Source of the DNA: a candidate division WWE3 bacterium
GTDB taxonomy: Bacteria > Patescibacteriota > WWE3 > UBA101185 > UBA10185
DNA: 64,000 bases
Direction of reading: 5' to 3'
Assembly: GCA_014729135.1 (NCBI GenBank)
Contig: WJKK01000001.1
Coordinates: forward strand, 629,407 to 693,406
The notes under the pieces are model-generated. The model was not told where the DNA came from and did not search any database. It worked only from the letters and a program-made list of their open reading frames with translations. The position numbers were made by a program, and so were the translations under genes. Each line of letters starts with the position of its first letter. Within the stretch, counting starts at the first letter, position 1. Positions 36,647-64,000 of the stretch are shown here, in pieces.

Positions 36647-36962
36647 TTTGTGTTCGCAACGCGAACCCAAATGGCTGATCATCCGCCTACGGCGGATGAA
36701 CTGCCTAACAAGTCCGTAGGACTTGTTACATCCATCGAAATGCTCGCGTTCGCTCGCATTTGCGATGGCCCGTACAACTTTTGACAAAGTTGTACGGTCG
36801 CAAACAAGAGTAATTAGCATTTCGATGACTCAGGTAAATAGGAGCGTACTAAAGCGACTATTTAGCTGTGCCTAACAAGTCGCAATGCGACTTGTTATAG
36901 TCTACAACTTTTAGCAAAGTTGTACGGTCACAAACAAAAATAACTAGCATTTCGATGACTTA
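36647..36962. repeat. block of consecutive hairpins with an internal ~95-135 nt tandem duplication, immediately downstream of tRNA-Gly
   Basis: Hairpins gttcgc-aac-gcgaac, catccgcc-tac-ggcggatg, taacaagtcc-gta-ggacttgtta, ccgtacaacttt-tga-caaagttgtacgg. The second unit repeats taacaagtcgc-aat-gcgacttgtta and acaacttt-tag-caaagttgt. Both units end with aaacaa..ta..tagcatttcgatgact. Confidence 0.5.
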
Positions 36963-38918: not shown

Positions 38919-38926
38919 GGTCCAAG

Positions 38927-38956
38927 CAAATACGAGCGTACTAACGCGAGTATTTG
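38927..38956. repeat. CAAATACGAGCG-TACTAA-CGCGAGTATTTG hairpin element (family shared with 41243..41274 and 3956..3987)
   Basis: Near-identical sequence in inverted orientation at 41243-41274; related arms at 3956-3987. Confidence 0.45.
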
Positions 38957-41242: not shown

Positions 41243-41274
41243 CAAAATACTCGCGTTAGCACGCTCGTATTTTG
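41243..41274. repeat. inverted copy of the CAAAATACGAGCG...CGCGAGTATTTTG hairpin element, upstream of tRNA-Leu
   Basis: The reverse complement caaaatacgagcgtgctaacgcgagtattttg nearly equals the element at 38927-38956. Confidence 0.45.
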
Positions 41275-47541: not shown

Positions 47542-47739
47542 ATGTACAATTGGTCAACGGATGAAAAGAAGCTTAAAAATCACCCTCAAAAACACAAACT
47601 CTGGAAACTGGAGCAACTAATCAACTTTGGCCTTGGAAAAGAAAGGTTAAACCGAAAAGATCTTAAAAGAAATCTGAAAAAACTAACAATAGACCCTCAA
47701 AAAAAGAAATATCTTCAATTCCTACTAAAAAAGGCCTAA
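47542..47739 (+). CDS. small basic protein, possible cognate partner (antitoxin-like) of the downstream AbiEii-like gene
   Basis: 65-aa Lys-rich ORF ending at the ATG of the 47739 gene (4-nt overlap ATGA). Confidence 0.25.
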   Translation: MYNWSTDEKKLKNHPQKHKLWKLEQLINFGLGKERLNRKDLKRNLKKLTIDPQKKKYLQFLLKKA

Positions 47740-48410
47740 TGAGTCTACTTACAAAGCAACAGAAAAAGTTTTTACACTTATTTTCGCAGGAGAAACTTTT
47801 AACAAAAAGGTTCTACCTTACAGGAGGAACCGCCCTTATAGAGTATTACATTCCCTATAGATACTCAGATGACTTGGACTTTTTTTCCGAGGCAGAAATC
47901 AACATCGACGCCGTTTTAACTTTTTTTAAATCAATCAAAAAAGAACTAGGCTATAAAGAATTCGATTACAACACTTCGTATAACCGAAATTTAATCTTCT
48001 TAAACTTTGGAGATTATGTTCTAAAAACCGAATTCACATACTTTCCTTTTCCGCCAATTCAGATAAATAAGCCTAAAGAAGGCATCCAAATAGATAGTCT
48101 CATTGATATAGCTGTAAACAAACTCTTTACTATATATCAAAACCCAAGGGGGCGTGATTTCATGGATTTATATATGATTCAAGAGAAAGAGAATTTTGAC
48201 ATGGAGCTTTTAATATCGCGTGCTCGTGCTAAATTTGACTGGCATGTTGATCCATTAAAACTGGGGGCGCAATTTATGTTAGCTAAGGAAACTAAGGACG
48301 AGCCCGTTTTGGTAAAAGATCTAAAAAGAGAGAATTGGGAAGACTATTTCATTGAAGCTGCAAAAAGCTTAGAGAGTGAAATTTTCGAAAGTAAGGATTC
48401 CCAGACTTAG
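47739..48410 (+). CDS. AbiEii/AbiGii-like nucleotidyltransferase (type IV TA toxin family fold)
   Basis: FYLTGGTALIEYYIPYRYSDDLDFF matches the GGTAL....HR.S.DLDF nucleotidyltransferase motif. Confidence 0.55.
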   Translation: MSLLTKQQKKFLHLFSQEKLLTKRFYLTGGTALIEYYIPYRYSDDLDFFSEAEINIDAVLTFFKSIKKELGYKEFDYNTSYNRNLIFLNFGDYVLKTEFTYFPFPPIQINKPKEGIQIDSLIDIAVNKLFTIYQNPRGRDFMDLYMIQEKENFDMELLISRARAKFDWHVDPLKLGAQFMLAKETKDEPVLVKDLKRENWEDYFIEAAKSLESEIFESKDSQT

Positions 48411-53435: not shown

Positions 53436-53512
53436 CGGGGTGTAGCTCAGTTGGCTAGAGTGCGCGCTTTGGGAGCGTGAGGTCCCGGGTTCGAGTCCCG
53501 GCACCCCGACCA
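53436..53512 (+). tRNA. tRNA-Pro (anticodon TGG)
   Basis: Acceptor cggggtg/caccccg, D-arm gctc-agttggcta-gagt, anticodon stem cgcgc/gcgtg with loop tttggga, T-arm ccggg-ttcgagt-cccgg, 3' acca. Confidence 0.8.
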
Positions 53513-53579
53513 GGGTTTTTAGTAGCTTGTTATTCCCATAACGGTAATAAATAATGCGGTTCTAAACCTTGATAACCAA

Positions 53580-53600
53580 ACAGGACAACTCGAACTTTTT
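53580..53600. repeat. Repeat B copy (ACAGGACAACTCGAACTTTTT) at the left edge of the GNAT cassette
   Basis: Identical core to 54299-54320; a related copy lies at 59994-60018. Confidence 0.55.
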
Positions 53601-53618
53601 CAGTGTTAAAATTAGTGT

Positions 53619-54215
53619 ATGGACATAAAATCACCGCAAAACTTAATGGAACTAACAGATGTATTCAGGTTTGTCGAAAAGGTGCTAAAATTGGAACCAG
53701 GCCATATAAGGGATCTCAGCTTTTACAAGAAGCAATTTGAAACAACACCCTACTTTTCTATTTATGTCGAAAAAGACAACGAAGTATTAGGGGCATTGCT
53801 GGCAGTGCCTCAGGGAAACGATGGACTGTTAGTAGGTGAAGTAGCTGTATCAGAAAAGGCTAGGGGAAAAGGAATAGGTTCCTTGTTACTTACCGAAATT
53901 GAAAAAAGAGCCAAGAAATACAAAAAGAAGAATGTCCTATTGGGATCACTAGAGACTGCAGAAGAATTTTACTTAAAGCACCAATATAAACCCAAATTAT
54001 TCATTCAGCTACAAGGTACCAATAGATTAAAAGAACTAAAGAATTTCGCCAAAGATAATTCTTATGAAAAAGATATTATTTGGGAAAATGAAGGAGATGG
54101 ATTTAGCAAAATAATAATCGAAACTTCAACCATAGACAAAAAACTTCAGGATAAGGCTAAGACATTATCTGGTGCACACACACAATACCTATTTTCAAAA
54201 AAGTTGCAAACATAG
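53619..54215 (+). CDS. GNAT family N-acetyltransferase
   Basis: VAVSEKARGKGIGSLLLTEIEKRAKK is the acetyl-CoA binding motif A (R/Q-x-x-G-x-G/A). Confidence 0.7.
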   Translation: MDIKSPQNLMELTDVFRFVEKVLKLEPGHIRDLSFYKKQFETTPYFSIYVEKDNEVLGALLAVPQGNDGLLVGEVAVSEKARGKGIGSLLLTEIEKRAKKYKKKNVLLGSLETAEEFYLKHQYKPKLFIQLQGTNRLKELKNFAKDNSYEKDIIWENEGDGFSKIIIETSTIDKKLQDKAKTLSGAHTQYLFSKKLQT

Positions 54216-54320
54216 TCCGCTATGGTCGACCAGGATTACAAACATTATTTCCTTACTGTAGCAACAATGAATACCGAGTTCTAAATTTTGGAGACCTAAC
54301 AGGACAACTCGAACTTTTTT
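54202..54320. repeat. composite attC-like junction: 31-nt Repeat A (AGTTGCAAACATAGTCCGCTATGGTCGACCA), a 66-nt spacer, and 22-nt Repeat B (ACAGGACAACTCGAACTTTTTT)
   Basis: Repeat A overlaps the GNAT stop codon. Repeat B overlaps the stop of the minus-strand 54319 gene. The outer termini AAAAAGTT..GTCC and GGAC..AACTTTTT are inverted. Confidence 0.55.
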
Positions 54321-55263
54321 ATTCAATAGTGGTAATTGGCCTACTCTGAGTTATATAAAATGTATTATCCCTATAAGCCCACTCAATATCTTGGGGCTTG
54401 TCGTAAAATGATTCTACTGTTGTACATATCCTTGCTAATTCCTGAATACGTCTATAATCCAACTTTTGACTATACTCTTCTTCGATTTCTTCCCATTCCA
54501 AGCCTTTTAGATCTTTGGGTAAAGCTAACTTTCTATCTTGTTCGGCAATATCAACACGCAAAACTACATCGTATTCCTTGTTATACTCATAAGAATCGGG
54601 GGTCAATTGGCCAGAAACTATACCCTCACCAAGTCCATATACTGCTTCAATAAGCATAATGTTCTTTTGCATTGAAATTGGATGAACTGTAAAGCATATG
54701 CCAGAAATGTCGCTTTGAACCATCTCTTGTACTACAACTGCCACCGCTCCATCTTTTGGTTTTATTTTCCTTTCTAAAGCATAAGTTATCGCTCTGGGGG
54801 AATAAAGAGATGCCCAACATTTTTTTATGTTGTCTATCAGATCTTCTTTAGTAGTGTTTAAATACGTTTCAAGTTCACCCGCCCAAGAATCTGTATCCGA
54901 ATCCTCAGAAGTGGCGGAACTACGGACAGCAACCAAATTCAGGTTTAGTGTATCGTACTGTGTCAAAATTTCATTCTTGAGCTTGTCGGCAATGCTTCCT
55001 TTTGTTATGGCCGCTTGGATTCTTTCACTGGCCTTGTTTATACCATCAAGATTACTTACAGTAACTTTTTCTAAAGAACTACTAATTACCTTTTCTAGTT
55101 CGTTAGTACTCAAAAACTTTTCAAAAGCTCTCGTTGTAACAACAAAACCTTGAGGTATAGGAATACCATACTGATACATCTTTGCCAGGGAAGCTCCCTT
55201 ACCACCAGTAAGTTTATTGTCTGTACACTTTGAATTTTCGAATATAAGAACTAGATCTTCCAT
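54319..55263 (-). CDS. PEP-utilising enzyme, N-terminal ATP-grasp (PPDK_N-like) domain protein
   Basis: KLTGGKGASLAKMYQYGIPIPQGFVVTTRAFEKFL matches the PEP synthase/PPDK nucleotide-binding N-domain. Confidence 0.65.
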   Translation of the reverse strand: MEDLVLIFENSKCTDNKLTGGKGASLAKMYQYGIPIPQGFVVTTRAFEKFLSTNELEKVISSSLEKVTVSNLDGINKASERIQAAITKGSIADKLKNEILTQYDTLNLNLVAVRSSATSEDSDTDSWAGELETYLNTTKEDLIDNIKKCWASLYSPRAITYALERKIKPKDGAVAVVVQEMVQSDISGICFTVHPISMQKNIMLIEAVYGLGEGIVSGQLTPDSYEYNKEYDVVLRVDIAEQDRKLALPKDLKGLEWEEIEEEYSQKLDYRRIQELARICTTVESFYDKPQDIEWAYRDNTFYITQSRPITTIE

Positions 55264-55265
55264 AT

Positions 55266-56768
55266 TTACTCCACAACCTCAACAATACCTTTTACGGCAT
55301 TAACTTTAACTTTATCTCCTGTTTTTATAATTTTTGTAGCGGATTTTGTACCTATTACACAAGGTATTTTAAGCTCCCTGGATACTATAGCTGCATGACT
55401 AGTAATACCACCCTCATTAGTAACTATCGCAGATGATTTTCTTATAGCAGGCATCAAACTTGGCCTAGTATTTCCAATAACTAGAATTGCACCTTCGGGC
55501 ATGCTTTTAACCTTCTTGTTAAAATCTTTATCTCCCCAGTTCATACAATAAGCTTTTCCTTCCACAACACCAGGAAAGGCAGTATTGCCCTCAATTTCTT
55601 TAATGGCATCGTAATTAGGCTTAGGTACTAGTTTGTTGAATTCAGCTATTGCACTGTCTCCATAAACAGACTTAGTAAGAACATCATTCTTTACTAAGAA
55701 TAGGTAGGCTTTGTAGCGATCCTTTGTCTTAAAGCTATCTTCAATATCTTCTTTACTAAAATCAATCTGAACTAGTTCACCAGGAGATAACGCCAACAGT
55801 GTATATGCAGGGATTTGCGTTAGCCTGGAAATTTTATAAACGAGTTCTCTCAACATCCTAAAGTACGCTGACCAAAGAATTCGTAGCTCAAGACGGTAGC
55901 GACCTAAATTTGCTAAACAGTCAGCTACATAAACTGTAGGCATTTCCAAACGGTGCTTATTTATAAATTCTTCTTTATTCACTCTGGCATTCTCGACAGC
56001 TTTGCTAAGCTCTGTTACTTTCTCGGACAAATTAACCTTAGAATCCAAACAATCCCTAAGAAGACCTATATAGTGCTGCAAATCCCAGTGGTCTGCTCCT
56101 TCATTTCCACTTAAGTGGCCATATTTTTTTATATGACTGTCTAGGGCATCTTTAAATTCCTTATAATCGGTAATCGTTTCTAGATTTATATCAGGCAAAA
56201 CATCTTCATATTTAAGTAGCAGTTTAAAAAAATCCTCCTCTTCATGATGCAACATAGATTTCTCCACAGGCGCTGTTAAAACAGCCACTGCTTCAGATAA
56301 ATCATCCTGTTCTAAATCATTAGCTAGATGATCTTCCAATCCTTTTGTAAATTGTGGGTTGGTCATGTTAAAAAAGGCAAACACATCAATTAGGGCCTGG
56401 GAAATATTAGCTAGAAGTTTTTGAATCACCGCCAAATCTTCCACATCATCAAACTGGGTCCTGAACAAGATTTGATCTTCCTTCAACTTCTTCTGTTTTT
56501 TCTTTACAGAATTAATAAATTCTCTATATTGTTCTTTATCCTGAAAATAGCTATAACCAAACTTCCCAGCTGCCTCCAAATCCTCTGGGGAGTGATAGGC
56601 TTCCAATACCTCATTCCTTGCAAATAGCAGCATACCTTTTGAAAAATACCCAAACAACTCTTTTTGCCTATCTACACAAAAAATTGTCCCATGTCCCATT
56701 TCAAATACGGGCGCATCTGCAACTTCCCAGATTTTTTCCCATTTTAGTGGCTCCTTTTTATCTACCAT
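55266..56768 (-). CDS. PEP-utilising enzyme mobile (phosphohistidine swivel) domain protein with a ~370-aa unknown N-terminal region
   Basis: C-terminal GGITSHAAIVSRELKIPCVIG is the phospho-His swivel-domain signature. It is separated by 2 nt from the downstream PPDK_N gene. Confidence 0.65.
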   Translation of the reverse strand: MVDKKEPLKWEKIWEVADAPVFEMGHGTIFCVDRQKELFGYFSKGMLLFARNEVLEAYHSPEDLEAAGKFGYSYFQDKEQYREFINSVKKKQKKLKEDQILFRTQFDDVEDLAVIQKLLANISQALIDVFAFFNMTNPQFTKGLEDHLANDLEQDDLSEAVAVLTAPVEKSMLHHEEEDFFKLLLKYEDVLPDINLETITDYKEFKDALDSHIKKYGHLSGNEGADHWDLQHYIGLLRDCLDSKVNLSEKVTELSKAVENARVNKEEFINKHRLEMPTVYVADCLANLGRYRLELRILWSAYFRMLRELVYKISRLTQIPAYTLLALSPGELVQIDFSKEDIEDSFKTKDRYKAYLFLVKNDVLTKSVYGDSAIAEFNKLVPKPNYDAIKEIEGNTAFPGVVEGKAYCMNWGDKDFNKKVKSMPEGAILVIGNTRPSLMPAIRKSSAIVTNEGGITSHAAIVSRELKIPCVIGTKSATKIIKTGDKVKVNAVKGIVEVVE

Positions 56769-56841
56769 AGGAACATTCTACACCAATAAGTAACAAGCTA
56801 GATAGAAATAACACTTTTCATGTATGTATTTTGACTGAAAA

Positions 56842-56872
56842 AGTTGCAAACATAGTCCGCTATGGTCGACCA
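56842..56872. repeat. Repeat A copy (AGTTGCAAACATAGTCCGCTATGGTCGACCA), identical to 54202-54232
   Basis: 31/31 nt identity read from the sequence, plus a shared AAAAAG prefix. Confidence 0.6.
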
Positions 56873-57031
56873 TACTTGATGGTTTTTTCTTCAGCATCCT
56901 TTAAAACCTTATATAACGGACTAATCTCGCAGTTCGCAAAAATGATCAAAAACAAGGCAAATAACACTTTGCAACCAAAAATCTATATATAACACTAATA
57001 AATTGGTTCTAGTCTTGGGTAGCGTTTCTTT

Positions 57032-57727
57032 TCAGAGAGGACTTTTAATATTTCTTAATTTCGGATTTGTAACTTGAGTATATCTTTGTGTGGTTCTAAT
57101 ATTTTGATGACCGAGTAATTCTTGAACATACCTAATATCAACTCCGTTTTCTAATAAGTGAGTTGCAAAACTATGTCGTAGTGAATGAAATGTCGCCTCC
57201 TTCTTAATTTCGGCGTTTCTCATAGCATTAGTAAAAATTTTTTGTGCTGTACGAGTTGTAAGTTTTCCCCCTCGTTCACTTGGAAAAACATATTCGTTTG
57301 GCTTCCCAGAATTAATTATCATTTTTAGATCATTTTTAATCTTCTCTGGGATAATTGTTATTCTATCCTTTTTCCCCTTGGCTTTCTTAATATGAAGTGT
57401 AAGATTATTAATATCTACGTCTTTGACTTTTAAGTTGACAACTTCACTAACTCTTAATCCTGCTCCATATGCTACGGAAAGGATCAATCTATGCTTATTA
57501 TTATTTGTTACTTCAGTCAATCTTTTGATTTCTTTACGATTTAGTATTACTGGAAGACTTTTGTTGTGTTTCGCAGATTTAATATCTATTTTGGAGGAAG
57601 TTTTTACAACGTTATAGTAATAAAACTTAATTGAATTCAAATATAGATTCCTTGTCTTAGCAGAGAGTCCTTTATCTGAACAGGTGAGTAGAAAGTTTCG
57701 TATGTTATCGATATCTAACTGCTTCAA
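57032..57727 (-). CDS. tyrosine-type site-specific recombinase/integrase (short, 231 aa)
   Basis: GLRVSE (catalytic Arg), HSLRHSFATHLL (H-x-x-R) and LGHQNIRTTQRYTQV (Tyr nucleophile). TTG start. Much shorter than IntI/XerC. Confidence 0.75.
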   Translation of the reverse strand: MKQLDIDNIRNFLLTCSDKGLSAKTRNLYLNSIKFYYYNVVKTSSKIDIKSAKHNKSLPVILNRKEIKRLTEVTNNNKHRLILSVAYGAGLRVSEVVNLKVKDVDINNLTLHIKKAKGKKDRITIIPEKIKNDLKMIINSGKPNEYVFPSERGGKLTTRTAQKIFTNAMRNAEIKKEATFHSLRHSFATHLLENGVDIRYVQELLGHQNIRTTQRYTQVTNPKLRNIKSPL

Positions 57728-58024
57728 ATTGGTTTTCTTGAACTGAAAGTATTTTTGAATTCCATTCGTGTAGCTTTTGATTGTTTTTTGGCTGTAATTG
57801 CGAATTTTTAACTCTCGTACAGTTGCTGTTGTTTCTTTTTTGATCTTTTTGTTTCTTATGTTATGATGTCGATAATTAATTTAGAGTGTTATATTAGAAG
57901 CAGTTCGCATAGTATATGAAATTCTGTACACATTACAAAAATACTTCGGATAGTAACGAGTTAAATGAAATATTCTTCTGAAAATTATTTTTATTCTGTA
58001 TTTTTGACACTTTTTTTAACCTAA

Positions 58025-59116
58025 ATGACGGCCGAAGTGATAAGACCAACCCAAGATTTTTCCGATATCCTCAATATTCCTAAAGATGAACTGGAAGACT
58101 CAGTTTGGAGAAACTTTTGGGGTGGCTTGTATGCTGTACGAGAAGAATCTCCAAATATAGCTCGGTTATTCCAAGAAGCTTTAGTCAATCGTAACAAATT
58201 TATTCCAACATCCATTGCTAACTATAGACACCTGATACCACGACCATTCAACTATCTCTTATTGCAAGAAGATCTTGATATAGAAATCGACCGTCTTTCA
58301 GCTATTGATTGGCAAAAGCATATCCGTCGTATTACAACTACCAAATCACGAGAACTATCCAACCTACTCGAGACAAAAACCTTGGCAGTATTTAACAGCA
58401 AACGCTATCTTCCAATATTGTTTTTGAGAGATATGTTAGGTTTTAACACAAATCGATGTGCTGATTTAGGATGCAGTGTGAACTTTGGTTTCACTAAATT
58501 AACCCAAATAACCCCCGATGCGTTCGATACCATTGTAAACCAATTAGACCATAATACTACACCCCAGCCTCTTGATGTTCCTGAATACGAGATTGGTTTT
58601 GACTATCAACAAAGAGATTTGTTATGGACTCAAGCATGTTATTTCCCTCAATATATTCAACATATGCGAAAGAAATTAGGTGAGCTTGAGGACGTATATC
58701 AATCTCAGAATAATCATTTTGAAGCTGTCGATTTGACAAAAAATATTGTTAGTCAAAAACCATCTCTTGAAGAAATTATCGGAACGATGGATGTAGTACA
58801 TGCAAGTCTTGTTTTTTACTTACTTGATGAAGAAGGTCGGAAAGCTTTTACTGATAACGCTTTGAGATTGTTAAAAGAAGGTGGTGCATTTATTCAGACC
58901 GACATGTTTGATCCAGATCTTAAACTAGATAGTGCACGCTCTGTTAGAACTGTAGTGAAATTTAAAGAAAGTGACTATAAATTCTCCCATGGATTAGAAC
59001 TGATTGAGTATGCACACTCAGCTACCAAAGACCATGGACCGTCTGATAGTTGCAATGTGTGGTATCCAGGAAAAGACTGGAACGAACTTAAAAAAAGTGT
59101 CAAAAATACAGAATAA
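58025..59116 (+). CDS. hypothetical protein (possible methyltransferase-like C-terminal region)
   Basis: 363 aa. ALRLLKEGGAFIQTDMF resembles a SAM-MTase LLKPGG segment, but no clear motif I. Confidence 0.35.
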   Translation: MTAEVIRPTQDFSDILNIPKDELEDSVWRNFWGGLYAVREESPNIARLFQEALVNRNKFIPTSIANYRHLIPRPFNYLLLQEDLDIEIDRLSAIDWQKHIRRITTTKSRELSNLLETKTLAVFNSKRYLPILFLRDMLGFNTNRCADLGCSVNFGFTKLTQITPDAFDTIVNQLDHNTTPQPLDVPEYEIGFDYQQRDLLWTQACYFPQYIQHMRKKLGELEDVYQSQNNHFEAVDLTKNIVSQKPSLEEIIGTMDVVHASLVFYLLDEEGRKAFTDNALRLLKEGGAFIQTDMFDPDLKLDSARSVRTVVKFKESDYKFSHGLELIEYAHSATKDHGPSDSCNVWYPGKDWNELKKSVKNTE

Positions 59117-59573
59117 AAATAATTTTCAGAAGAATACATCATTTATTTTTCTCTCTATTGGATTAGTCATAGTACTAATTTATATTGTAGGAGCTATATT
59201 GATAAATCTCGCATTTAAACCGGAAGATAATCCTTATAATTGGAATATAGAAAATTGCACTAAAATAGTAAATCAATACAAAAACGAGAAAAATAAAATT
59301 GATAATTTTGAAGATGGATTCCGTGTTGATCCAGGTCCTCCATTCAGAATCGTTTTCATTAACTATAGAGGTGTAGTTGATAATTGGAATGGTATTATCT
59401 ATGATCCTTCTAAAGAGATAGAAAAAATTATCAATTACGATCAGGTTGGTTGGGAAAGTTGGTGGAATGATCCAAATCTAAACTCATTAAAAAGTATATT
59501 TGGCGGAGATGTTGCTGGTTGTAAAAAAATGGATGATTGGGGTGATGACTGGTATTTTTGCTCATTCACCTGA
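59004..59573 (+). CDS. small membrane-anchored hypothetical protein (true start probably downstream of the overlap with the 58025 ORF)
   Basis: TM helix FIFLSIGLVIVLIYIVGAILINLAF, then a Trp/Asn-rich soluble part. Confidence 0.3.
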   Translation: MSMHTQLPKTMDRLIVAMCGIQEKTGTNLKKVSKIQNKNNFQKNTSFIFLSIGLVIVLIYIVGAILINLAFKPEDNPYNWNIENCTKIVNQYKNEKNKIDNFEDGFRVDPGPPFRIVFINYRGVVDNWNGIIYDPSKEIEKIINYDQVGWESWWNDPNLNSLKSIFGGDVAGCKKMDDWGDDWYFCSFT

Positions 59574-59808
59574 TAATACAAAATTCTTCAACAAAATAAA
59601 TAAGGATGAGGCGGATATAGAAAAAGTAGTGGATTGGATTACACAGAGAGGCTATGGGGAAGATAGGGAATTTCAATTTCACTCATCTACAGACTTAATA
59701 CAACGCAGACAAAACGGTTATTATTTAGAAGAGACCCTAACTTCCTGAAAAAATGCAGAGACGGTACATATAGATGAAAAGGGTAGAATTATCTAGCAAT
59801 CATGTAAA

Positions 59809-60018
59809 AGTTACAAACATAGTCCGCTATGGCCGACCATTTGTCGTTGCGAAGCAACTACAAATGCTTAACAAAATACAAGCACCCTTCCTTTTCTTTA
59901 AAATGGGGGCGTAGTATTTTGTTATGCCTGCAAGTGTTGCAAAGCAACCTTGCAGAACATCGATTAAGAGCAAAGCATTTTTGACGAGCTAATCAGAACA
60001 ACCCAAACTTTTTCAATG
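59809..60018. repeat. attC-like junction: Repeat A variant (AGTTACAAACATAGTCCGCTATGGCCGACCA), two GTTGC-NNN-GCAAC palindromes, and a Repeat B variant (CAGAACAACCCAAACTTTTTCAATG)
   Basis: 29/31 identity to Repeat A; palindromes gttgcgaagcaac (59846-59858) and gttgcaaagcaac (59936-59948). Confidence 0.5.
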
Positions 60019-60031
60019 ATAAACTGTAAAT

Positions 60032-60802
60032 ATGAAAATAACACCTAACAGAATTAGAAAACTGGTGGAAATAGCTTATGTAATAGAGCCACTCTTGGAT
60101 AAAGAGGACTGTACAACAAGGTTTATAGATCTTCCTGGTAAGACAATATATGACTTCATACTTGCTGGATTAAATGTGGGGGAAGTATTTGAAGATTACG
60201 CAAGAAGTGTTCAAGAGCATAATAACAAGGAACTTTTATCCCATTTTGAGAGAGCAGTAAAACTTAGCAATGAATACAAGCATGAAAAGCTAATCAACAT
60301 AGGACTCTTAGAATTTATGTTCGTTGCAGTCAAATCCCGACTTATCTCAAATACATTAGAAAAAAGTTTAGACAACATTAAAAAGGTGCTACAGGATACT
60401 TCTAATGAGGATGTACGAAATGAATACAAGGTCTTTGTTGGCGCACTATCTACATCGGAAAAAGACACAAAAAAATCCTTATGGATTGAAACATATAAAG
60501 ATTTTTTGGGGTTTAATAATCTTCACGAGTACTATTTACACGCTGAAGAAGCACTCTCTAAGGATAAGACTACTGCTAATTACCAGGTAGCTCATGAGTT
60601 TACAGAGGGATTTCCTATATTGAAACAATATGTGAACAGCATTGAAAAAAGTAAGGGACTAATAAAAAGTATTGAAAACACGTATGAAAAACTCCATAAA
60701 GAGAACCCCCAAGTTAAAATAGGTATACTGGCAGATTTTAGTGCTGTAGCAATATTTTTGTACTTAAGCTACCAAGACCCCTCAACATACGTCCTTAACT
60801 AA
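60032..60802 (+). CDS. hypothetical protein
   Basis: 256-aa ORF bounded by junction repeats; no motif recognised. Confidence 0.35.
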   Translation: MKITPNRIRKLVEIAYVIEPLLDKEDCTTRFIDLPGKTIYDFILAGLNVGEVFEDYARSVQEHNNKELLSHFERAVKLSNEYKHEKLINIGLLEFMFVAVKSRLISNTLEKSLDNIKKVLQDTSNEDVRNEYKVFVGALSTSEKDTKKSLWIETYKDFLGFNNLHEYYLHAEEALSKDKTTANYQVAHEFTEGFPILKQYVNSIEKSKGLIKSIENTYEKLHKENPQVKIGILADFSAVAIFLYLSYQDPSTYVLN

Positions 60803-60820
60803 AGTAGAGTTGCCAAAAAA

Positions 60821-60853
60821 AGTTGCAAGCATAATCAGCTATAGGCGATCAAA
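60821..60853. repeat. degenerate Repeat A copy (AGTTGCAAGCATAATCAGCTATAGGCGATCAAA)
   Basis: Shares AAAAAGTTGCAA..CATA.TC.GCTAT.G.CGA..A with Repeat A. Confidence 0.4.
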
Positions 60854-60886
60854 TCTTCACTTTTACTTTTTGTTATAATTTTTAAT

Positions 60887-61318
60887 ATGAAGTACGAATT
60901 TTACATAGCCGCCAGATGGAGAAATAAGGAAAACGTTTTAAAGCTTGCCCGAGGGTTAGAATCACGCAAGAAAATCGCCTACAATTTTATTGAAGGTGAT
61001 GGCGAACAATATGAATTCAAAGAACAAGAAAAAATTTTAGAACCTGAGGAATTAATGGAAAAATTTGAGAGCATTCCTAATTGGAAAAATGATTCAAAAG
61101 TAAAAGAGATATTTGAGGTAGACATACAAGCTATTAAAAATTCCGAGAAGTTGATCCTTTTGCTTCCTGCAGGAAAATCTGCTCACATAGAGGCTGGAAT
61201 AGCCTATGGAATGGGTAAAGAGTGTATTGTTATCGGGGAACAAAAAGAAGCGGAAAGTTTGTACCTCATATTCTCCAAATTTTACGAAACTATCGAAGAT
61301 TTTGTTAAATCAGTATAG
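60887..61318 (+). CDS. hypothetical protein (possibly nucleoside 2-deoxyribosyltransferase-like fold)
   Basis: 143 aa; LILLLPAGKSAHIEAGIAYGMGKECIVIG weakly resembles NDT-family C-terminal motifs. Confidence 0.3.
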   Translation: MKYEFYIAARWRNKENVLKLARGLESRKKIAYNFIEGDGEQYEFKEQEKILEPEELMEKFESIPNWKNDSKVKEIFEVDIQAIKNSEKLILLLPAGKSAHIEAGIAYGMGKECIVIGEQKEAESLYLIFSKFYETIEDFVKSV

Positions 61319-61373
61319 TTGTAAACACAACCCATTGTACTACATGGTGTCGTGAAACAACCCCAACTCCTCC
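61318..61373. repeat. short degenerate junction (AGTTGTAAACACAACCC ... AAACAACCCCAACTCCTCC) resembling Repeat A + Repeat B
   Basis: Partial matches to both repeat cores between two cassette genes. Confidence 0.3.
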
Positions 61374-63235: not shown

Positions 63236-64000
63236 CTACACCACAAAATCAATATACTTAGGCAGATACTCCTTATAAGAATCAATAAAACCCTCCAAAA
63301 CAGCCGGCGACTCCAACAGAGGCTCCAAATCCTTATATAGAAATTCGCTATCAATAACCAACACCTTCTCCTTAAAATCCTCTAGTGCTTTGGAAAGCGT
63401 CTTATCTGCTAACAATACCTTTAAACGCTCAATATTCATTTTCAACTCGAAAGAAGACTTAGAAGACAACTGCAAAAACCAATAAAGATCATATACATCA
63501 CGCCCTTTAAACGGAATCTTCTGAAACTTTCCTTTAAAGAAGGAACGGTTTAAAAATGCTACAAACTTATTAGCAAAAAGCGTAGGTAAGTCATAAGAAG
63601 TAACGAAAAACTGAAACTTACCCGCCGTAATAAGGTTTTTATCCGTATCATAAACTCCTGCGGTCTCCTGTGAAACATCCACACGCACAAATATATCCTC
63701 GGGAATACGATCCTCATAAAATTCAAGCTCCTTAAGAAGAGGAAATTTGAAGTAAACTGTATTCCTATTACCCGAGATAGAATAGTCAATTGTTTTATAC
63801 TGAACTTTTGAACGAAAATACGTCAGCACATCCTTGCTAAACTGCTCAATGTCAAAACTACCTAAAAAGTCAAAATCGAGATCTTCAGACAGGCGATTTA
63901 AACCGTAAACCTTGCGCAAACATGTGCCCCCTGTAAAAAGCAGTTCATTATAGTCGGTGCTTGTAAAAACAAAATTTAAAATGTAATTTTGGATCTCTTC
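63236..64000 (-). CDS. AbiEii/AbiGii-like nucleotidyltransferase, 5' end beyond the window
   Basis: The called ORF starts at a TTG at 63919. The frame stays open upstream to the window edge and encodes ...NELLFTGGTCLRKVYGLNRLSEDLDFDF, the canonical GGTxL...R.SEDLDF motif. So the gene continues past position 64000. Confidence 0.5.
   Translation of the reverse strand, partial: EEIQNYILNFVFTSTDYNELLFTGGTCLRKVYGLNRLSEDLDFDFLGSFDIEQFSKDVLTYFRSKVQYKTIDYSISGNRNTVYFKFPLLKELEFYEDRIPEDIFVRVDVSQETAGVYDTDKNLITAGKFQFFVTSYDLPTLFANKFVAFLNRSFFKGKFQKIPFKGRDVYDLYWFLQLSSKSSFELKMNIERLKVLLADKTLSKALEDFKEKVLVIDSEFLYKDLEPLLESPAVLEGFIDSYKEYLPKYIDFVV

Follow-up and report, generated by a model that had tools for sequence, protein, structure and literature searches.

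The 64-kb stretch of DNA analysed here (the window) carries a tRNA-Pro gene that is followed, in this order, by a leader ending in a first copy of Repeat B, the gene of a GNAT acetyltransferase, a copy of Repeat A (A1), a second leader ending in B, a gene pair coding a PEP-utilising enzyme, A2, the gene of a tyrosine recombinase, an element bounded by 58-nt inverted repeats, A3, a group of hairpins with a B-like sequence, ORF 60032-60802, A4 and ORF 60887-61318 (Table 1). The genes lie on both strands, and the best-preserved cassettes are found on the 3' side of the integrase gene, between it and tRNA-Pro.

Table 1. Features of the window between tRNA-Pro and the last possible remnant of Repeat A. 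The division into cassettes and the role of the sites are those of the proposed explanation.
Feature	Position	Strand	Evidence
tRNA-Pro(TGG), proposed primary attB	53436..53512	+	ARAGORN; Rfam 65 bits; 3' end ..AGTCC..CGACCA; register matches A
Cassette 1 leader, 88 nt, ends in B copy 1 (53559-53600, core 53580-53600)	53513..53600	+	Homology to 54233-54319 stops at B end
GNAT acetyltransferase, putative cassette 1 cargo	53619..54215	+	Pfam PF13508/PF00583; ORF list
Repeat A copy 1 (A1), putative pseudo-tRNA-3'-end att site closing cassette 1	54198..54232	+	Repeat searches, alignment
Cassette 2 leader, 87 nt, ends in B copy 2 (54278-54319)	54233..54319	+	Homology to cassette 1 leader
Split PEP-utilising enzyme, putative cassette 2 cargo	54319..56768	-	Pfam, NCBIfam
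PPDK_N, part of the split enzyme	54319-55263	-	Pfam, NCBIfam
PEP-utilizers mobile-domain protein, part of the split enzyme	55266-56768	-	Pfam, NCBIfam
Repeat A copy 2 (A2), putatively closing cassette 2, adjoins int-arm	56838..56872	+	Repeat searches, flank alignment
Int-arm, conserved 3' flank of the integrase gene	56873..57031	-	Alignment with L011 and L013; conservation stops at CGACCA of A2
Tyrosine recombinase/integrase, 270 aa, apparent ATC start, Xer/XerA-like	57032..57844	-	Pfam, NCBIfam, relatives
Integrase upstream region, conserved with L010, L011 and L006	57845..57961	-	Homology ends at 57961/57962
Repeat A copy 3 (A3), 3 mismatches, ends CCGACCA, putatively closing the integrase-bearing element	59805..59839	+	Repeat searches
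Cassette 4 leader: three hairpins (59840-59990), then weak B-like copy (59993-60013)	59840..60013	+	Folding z-scores; B-like match
256-aa protein, no family match, putative cassette 4 cargo	60032..60802	+	Pfam, NCBIfam, PADLOC searches
Repeat A copy 4 (A4), 6 mismatches, core CGATCA, most decayed clear copy	60817..60851	+	Repeat searches
Possible fifth A remnant (A5), AGTTGTAAACA, overlaps stop of ORF 60887-61318; weak assignment	61317..61327	+	Sequence comparison

Homologues of the split PEP-utilising enzyme are widespread across Patescibacteria, and the pair could be resident rather than cargo. The closest PPDK_N homologue found in the homologue search has 57% identity and, since none exceeds this value, cassette 2 is not traceable elsewhere. 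The context of a GNAT homologue in another genome (locus L015; related loci are designated by L numbers) has a doubtful A-like core, CTCGACCA, 75 nt upstream of the gene and no A downstream of it. The 256-aa protein coded by ORF 60032-60802 gave no match in Pfam or NCBIfam and a marginal Avs2 hit in PADLOC (E 0.0073, 11.8 bits).

The element with 58-nt inverted repeats (57962-59145, 1184 bp) has ends that are 97% complementary. Its 363-aa ORF (58025-59116) matched neither Pfam nor PADLOC, and NCBIfam gave no more than a marginal hit to the corrinoid-protein methyltransferase CpaM (E 0.0032, far below cut-off). The left end of the element, at 57961/57962, coincides exactly with the point where homology to the regions upstream of the integrase genes of L010 and L011 breaks off, and no target-site duplication was detected around it. 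It is possibly a new insertion sequence, or else a cassette that was inserted here. The right edge of the accessory region is occupied by a gene for a homologue of AbiEii-type nucleotidyltransferase toxins (63236-63919, minus strand; PADLOC E = 1e-17), and ORF 47739-48410 (plus strand) possibly codes a similar protein as judged by eye.

Copies and extents of Repeats A and B

Repeat A is 35 nt long (AAAAAGTTGCAAACATAGTCCGCTATGGTCGACCA) and includes the sequence originally quoted, AAAAAGTTGCAAACATAGTCCGC, at 54198-54220, 4 nt further left than the start first given for it. Its four copies, all on the plus strand, lie between 54.2 and 60.9 kb, and their decay rises with distance from tRNA-Pro: the copies at 54198 and 56838 are identical and those at 59805 and 60817 have 3 and 6 mismatches, respectively. 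No other copy was found in the 64-kb window and none in 100 shuffles. The core of Repeat B, ACAGGACAACTCGAACTTTTT, is likewise present as quoted at 54299-54319 and is identical at 21/21 positions to 53580-53600; the two cores sit within a 42-nt repeat (53559-53600 and 54278-54319) that is 86% identical, and a third, weak copy is found at 59993-60013. The copies of A and B are limited to one 7.5-kb stretch of the window, where they lie at the boundaries of gene cassettes, in agreement with the link to gene boundaries on which the original prediction depended.

That prediction had described A and B as mutually inverted ends of a single ~120-nt site overlapping stop codons on both sides. The reverse complement of B, rc(B), aligns with A over AAAAAGTT, then over 9 versus 6 nt and then over GTCC..T.TGGT, and can be read as a diverged inverted A. 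The inverted relation is longer than had been noted, and it is real, but it stands only modestly above chance, the local alignment score being matched by 61-116 of 5000 shuffles (p about 0.01-0.02). The outer boundaries of the unit were placed correctly. The stretches that follow tRNA-Pro (53513-53600) and A1 (54233-54319) are homologous and equal in length, and when 53513-53618 is compared with 54233-54338 the identity is 57% in the leader, 86% in B and 22% right after AACTTTTT; because of this collapse the right edge of the ~122-nt unit is a true homology boundary. The overlap with stop codons holds on one side, where the last 18 nt and the TAG (54213-54215) of the GNAT gene lie within A1, but on the other side the minus-strand TAA (54319-54321) overlaps B by just 1-2 nt.

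A second inverted stretch of this kind is found in the int-arm that follows A2 (about 56913-56939, A-like, p about 0.05), so that an inverted mimic seems to be recurrent at the junctions of the array. Similarity between Repeat B and the int-arm was not significant. At most places A is found without B (56838, 60817, L001, L003 and L004). This independence bears on the interpretation of A...B as a miniature inverted-repeat element (MITE) of ~122 bp, which would account for the inverted ends (AAAAAGTT...AACTTTTT) and for a homology boundary exactly at the end of B. Since A and B occur independently, no target-site duplication is seen at 54197/54320 and all copies belong to one locus in one orientation, a MITE is barely conceivable.

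A role of A as a promoter or terminator was also considered and rejected. The reverse complement of A holds a weak hairpin followed by a T-run that is flagged as terminator-like on the minus strand. The orientation of A relative to the flanking genes is inconsistent, which makes a function as transcription signal unlikely.

Two further families of repeats were noted elsewhere in the window. A conserved palindromic motif of ~30 nt, AAATACGAGCGTACTAACGCGAGTATTT, is found after tRNA-Gly and tRNA-Arg and, inverted, just before tRNA-Leu (36831-36863, 38923-38955 and 41245-41272), with 67-nt repeats at 36773 and 36903, after tRNA-Gly. The palindromic repeat GGGACAGTCCTCTTAGAGGACTGTCCC is dispersed in six copies (19435, 23883, 24046, 29411, 46230 and 46306) and is probably a family of terminator-like hairpins.

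Folding of the junctions and features of the recombinase

The original prediction had likened the inverted GTT/AAC cores to attC sites while noting their misfit to the RYYYAAC...GTTRRRY consensus. Neither core of the consensus is matched, and the unit reads AAAAAGTT...AACTTTTT on both strands, with GTT before AAC. Folding of 54190-54330 as single strand is no better than that of shuffled sequences (z -0.33 on the plus and -0.27 on the minus strand), and the junctions at 56830-56960 and 60805-60890 are unremarkable. The sole structured junction is 59797-60025, whose structure comes from three internal hairpins and not from pairing of A with B. These strong hairpins lie between A3 and the next gene (59840-59990; z -4.7 and -6.05), and two of them are tipped by the GTTGC-NNN-GCAAC micro-palindromes that had been pointed out in this junction, both present (59847-59859 and 59937-59949). 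No Rfam family corresponds to them; Rfam gave only tRNAs and a tmRNA. Hairpin elements of relatives fold with z -2.2 to -6.4.

The recombinase gene can be read beyond its listed TTG start as far upstream as an ATC (57842-57844), which gives a product of 270 aa, the length typical of the family. The same ATC start is found in L010, whose integrase is 89% identical, and L011 has ATG at this place; an identical protein of 231 aa (P0003) is annotated in a candidate division WWE3 genome. The protein matches PF00589 (E = 6.6e-45), and its translation holds the catalytic R, H-x-x-R and Y motifs (GLRVSE, HSLRHSF and RTTQRYT). Its match to the integron integrase model TIGR02249 is in two pieces (query 3-139 to profile 40-178; 156-231 to about 252-327) that skip profile positions 179-251, the region of the IntI insert, and scores 186.5 bits against a cut-off of 265. 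The best NCBIfam match is archaeal XerA, also below cut-off. Members of the integrase family are 65-89% identical across distant phyla; a search of viral contigs for the integrase protein and for the int-arm pattern gave no match.

Related loci and homology breakpoints

Scans for Repeat A revealed one locus in each of three Patescibacteria reference genomes and one metagenome contig, and none in viral contigs. Every A locus found adjoins a tRNA or tmRNA gene. In L003 a tRNA-Pro gene is followed by one gene and by A, oriented as in the window. L004 has the order tRNA-Pro, 150 nt, a 16-nt copy of the tRNA 3' end, gene, A, gene. L001 is a one-gene cassette, an APH-family gene between two copies of A, the second of which is followed by a 15-nt copy of the tRNA-Glu 3' end and by tRNA-Glu itself. 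In L002 rc(A) comes directly after the 3' end of the tmRNA, with genes coding a Fic protein and a methyltransferase beside it. Note that in L001 and L002 the orientation of A is opposite to that of the neighbouring tRNA-Glu or tmRNA, which counts against accretion at tRNA ends. No integrase gene was found in the 8 kb around A in L001-L003, and no A-like site accompanies the close integrase homologues of L005-L009; these two points likewise count against it.

These loci bear on the possibility that A and B are fossil integration scars, or a local regulatory or terminator motif, and that the genes between them are no longer, or never were, mobile units. The terminator-like hairpin and T-run of rc(A), its position directly after the tmRNA in L002 and the decay of A4 and of the possible A5 would fit. 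Against it stand the inconsistent orientation of A and the 100% identity over 35 nt of A1, A2 and the copies of L001 and L004, whose flanks are unrelated; identity of this kind points to constraint or recent spread and not to neutral scars. This interpretation is considered unlikely, though it keeps some weight.

Integrase homologues with 73-89% identity were traced to their contigs. In four of these the integrase gene is convergent with a tRNA gene, namely tRNA-Pro at 325 nt in L013 and at 4.4 kb in L011, and tRNA-Ser at 960 nt in L014, where partial tRNA repeats are present, and at 5.3 kb in L006. The region 1800-2220 of L014, between integrase and tRNA-Ser, holds several partial copies of the tRNA-Ser 3' end together with repeated blocks of ~60 nt, interrupted by an N run, and has the look of a tandem series of very short segments bounded by att sites.

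Downstream of the stop codon of the integrase gene, 165 nt are conserved in the window, L011 and L013, and this conservation ends exactly at ...CAAGTATGGTCG. Beyond the breakpoint the window has rc(A2), L011 has the A-like sequence CTCAAAGTTCGTAACGCGTCCAGTACCCCCGACCA (A*), which also resembles the end of its own tRNA-Pro (p about 0.01), and L013 has a 17-nt exact copy of the 3' end of the adjacent tRNA-Pro. In L010 a partial tRNA-Pro 3' half was read further downstream of the integrase gene, past an unrelated stretch of ~100 nt. In a multiple alignment, A, A* and true tRNA-Pro ends line up without gaps across GTCC-N8-C.ACCA, with GTCC and C.ACCA invariant. A and the tRNA-Pro end of the window share 11/31 positions, a local alignment that is not significant alone, with AGTCC and CGACCA in register (GTCC, 10 nt, CGACCA). 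From the alignment and the breakpoint it follows that A takes the place of a copy of the tRNA-Pro 3' end, with exchange at or just left of CGACCA. Compared with four other genomes, the A junctions behave as recombination junctions; the layout of the locus, the homology breakpoints and the tRNA link are direct observations. Because the repeats stand at cassette boundaries, are direct around a tyrosine recombinase gene and are junction-like in comparisons with four other genomes, "cassette recombination sites" is a fair description of them.

This part of the attC reading is retained, but its specific part is not. Were the locus a true integron, the ~122-nt A...B would fold as a single-stranded attC whose outer GTT/AAC would be recombined by an integron integrase. 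The inverted ends with their unequal spacers (9 versus 6 nt) recall R and L boxes with extrahelical bases, a cassette-like array surrounds a tyrosine recombinase whose score with the integron-integrase model is 186 bits, and in L006 a 73%-identical integrase lies beside genes with strongly folding GTTAAGT/ACTTAAC inverted-repeat junctions. The A...B junction nevertheless folds like its shuffles, the boxes of the consensus are absent, most sites have A without B, the TIGR02249 match lacks the IntI insert and stays below cut-off, the cassette genes lie in both orientations, and the homology breakpoints fall at CGACCA, between A and B. An integron is largely refuted by the folding and the breakpoints and is judged very improbable.

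Alternatively, A could be a dif-type site of the chromosome, used by a single Xer-like recombinase and flanking elements that exploit Xer, such as IMEX or the pdif modules of Acinetobacter. By eye A can be read as an 11-6-11 site (TTGCAAACATA GTCCGC TATGGTCGACC) with dyad symmetry like that of E. coli dif, the likeness being limited to CATA..TATG. The XerA-like recombinase, the single A locus in each reference genome that carries A, the inverted arrangement of A and B, as of pdif sites around modules, and a maximum of cumulative GC skew at 54 kb would all agree with such a site. The skew is, however, a plateau from 34 kb onward, and the window extends just 10 kb beyond the site on the right. 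In relatives the position of A is taken by a genuine copy of a tRNA 3' end, the homologous integrases adjoin tRNA-Pro or tRNA-Ser with partial tRNA repeats present, and the 65-89% identity of the family across distant phyla is more like that of a mobile gene than of a housekeeping Xer. The genuine tRNA copies outweigh the dif reading, which we regard as improbable. Note that the cumulative GC skew rises over 0-34 kb before it flattens, and that the replication terminus may be nearby.

A proposed array of cassettes at tRNA-Pro

The locus probably consists of small integrative cassettes that have accumulated in tandem at the 3' end of tRNA-Pro, an explanation that we favour with some reservation. 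A and B are most likely attachment sites modelled on this tRNA end, and the array is most likely a genomic island of a familiar kind in an unusually cassette-like form rather than a classical integron. In the proposed mechanism A would be a 35-nt double-stranded att site that mimics the 3' part of tRNA-Pro, with strand exchange at or just left of CGACCA. A circular cassette would carry A joined to its own leader, and the tyrosine integrase (57032-57844) would recombine it with the tRNA end or an A already in place. This would restore the tRNA end and leave A on the far side of the insert. Repeated insertion would then yield tRNA-Pro / B-GNAT-A / B-PEP enzyme-A / int-arm-integrase-...-A / hairpins-ORF-A / and so on. 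If new cassettes enter next to the tRNA, decay of A should rise with distance from it, as is seen. The cassette leaders differ, and A alone is common to all junctions, which counts against this model.

Each A...B junction, including 54198-54320, would accordingly be composite, with A as the right end of the upstream cassette and the leader plus B as the left end of the downstream one. The single ~120-nt site of the original prediction is therefore kept in its outer limits but with an exchange point inside it. Since the breakpoints put the crossover between A and B, near CGACCA, A and B would belong to two different neighbouring cassettes, and the homologous leaders after tRNA-Pro and A1 together with the CGACCA breakpoint indicate that the ~122-nt unit is composite. 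The GNAT gene running into A and the PPDK_N stop codon abutting B fit an assignment of A to the left and of B to the right cassette. B itself would be a decayed A-like sequence (a pseudo-tRNA end) in inverted orientation and might serve as an accessory arm site. Action of this integrase on A, a function of B and continued mobility of the cassettes are inferences.

The closest parallel among known loci is provided by integrative elements stacked in tandem at tRNA genes, some of which have no integrase and are mobilised in cis. Tandem accretion at tRNA genes includes such cis-mobilisable elements (CIMEs) in Streptococcus thermophilus ICESt1/ICESt3, and Prochlorococcus islands have repeated partial tRNA-Pro 3' ends. 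Common to these systems and the locus are a tyrosine integrase, insertion at a tRNA 3' end, direct att-type repeats that part units of which several have no integrase of their own, and a stronger decay of older repeats. The locus differs in its very small units (0.7-3 kb, often a single gene), in a site that is a diverged 35-nt mimic, identical across different Patescibacteria, instead of a plain copy of the tRNA end, in the position of the integrase gene at the distal end and convergent with the tRNA, and in the second, inverted mimic (B) at its junctions.

An integron is resembled functionally: a single recombinase would serve a series of small cassettes, most of them with one gene and each with its own recombination site at one end, and the cargo is of drug-modifying type (GNAT, APH in L001, and the PEP-utilising enzyme, which is rifampicin-phosphotransferase-like). 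The locus fails, however, each defining integron feature testable here, having no IntI insert, no folded single-strand attC and no R/L box consensus; its primary site is a tRNA 3' end and not an attI beside the 5' end of the integrase gene, and its cassettes, which point in both directions, appear to have promoters of their own. The Xer/dif elements (IMEX and the pdif modules of Acinetobacter plasmids) share with it an Xer-like recombinase and sites of ~28-35 bp that flank small gene modules in inverse orientation, but the sites at this locus adjoin tRNA 3' ends and appear to derive from them, and the copies of A are all direct.

The putative cargo (GNAT, APH, PEP-utilising enzyme and Fic) is typical accessory material. 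Patescibacteria genomes are tiny, and to our knowledge little is known about how these bacteria gain accessory genes; no account of integrons or comparable arrays in this group turned up in literature searches. If the cassette reading is true, the build-up of one- or two-gene cassettes at a tRNA gene, by means of a conserved 35-nt site and an integrase common to many lineages, would be a compact route of gene capture, working like an integron but of separate origin. The combination of A, a tRNA end and the integrase arm would then be a simple sequence handle for mobile cargo, including enzymes of drug-modifying type. A broader proposal is made tentatively, and we hold it to be rather doubtful: Patescibacteria might carry an integron-like gene-capture platform in which a resident, widely shared 270-aa Xer-like integrase without IntI domain uses a tRNA 3' end as its primary site. 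Its single-gene cassettes (GNAT, APH, PEP-utilising enzymes, Fic) would each have a 35-nt double-stranded tRNA-mimic site and be exchanged between lineages.

Strongly folding inverted-repeat elements, TAATGTGCTGCGACTA...TAGTCGCAGCACATTA (z about -6), were observed upstream of the homologous integrase genes in L006 (5700-9000), L010 (1340-1500) and L011 (30-210). The same integrase family may also serve arrays with hairpin-type junctions on its 5' side, as in L006. There, small genes are separated by hairpin junctions with motifs of the GTTAAGT/ACTTAAC type, an arrangement with the appearance of a genuine attC-like array, placed 5' of an integrase gene of this family.
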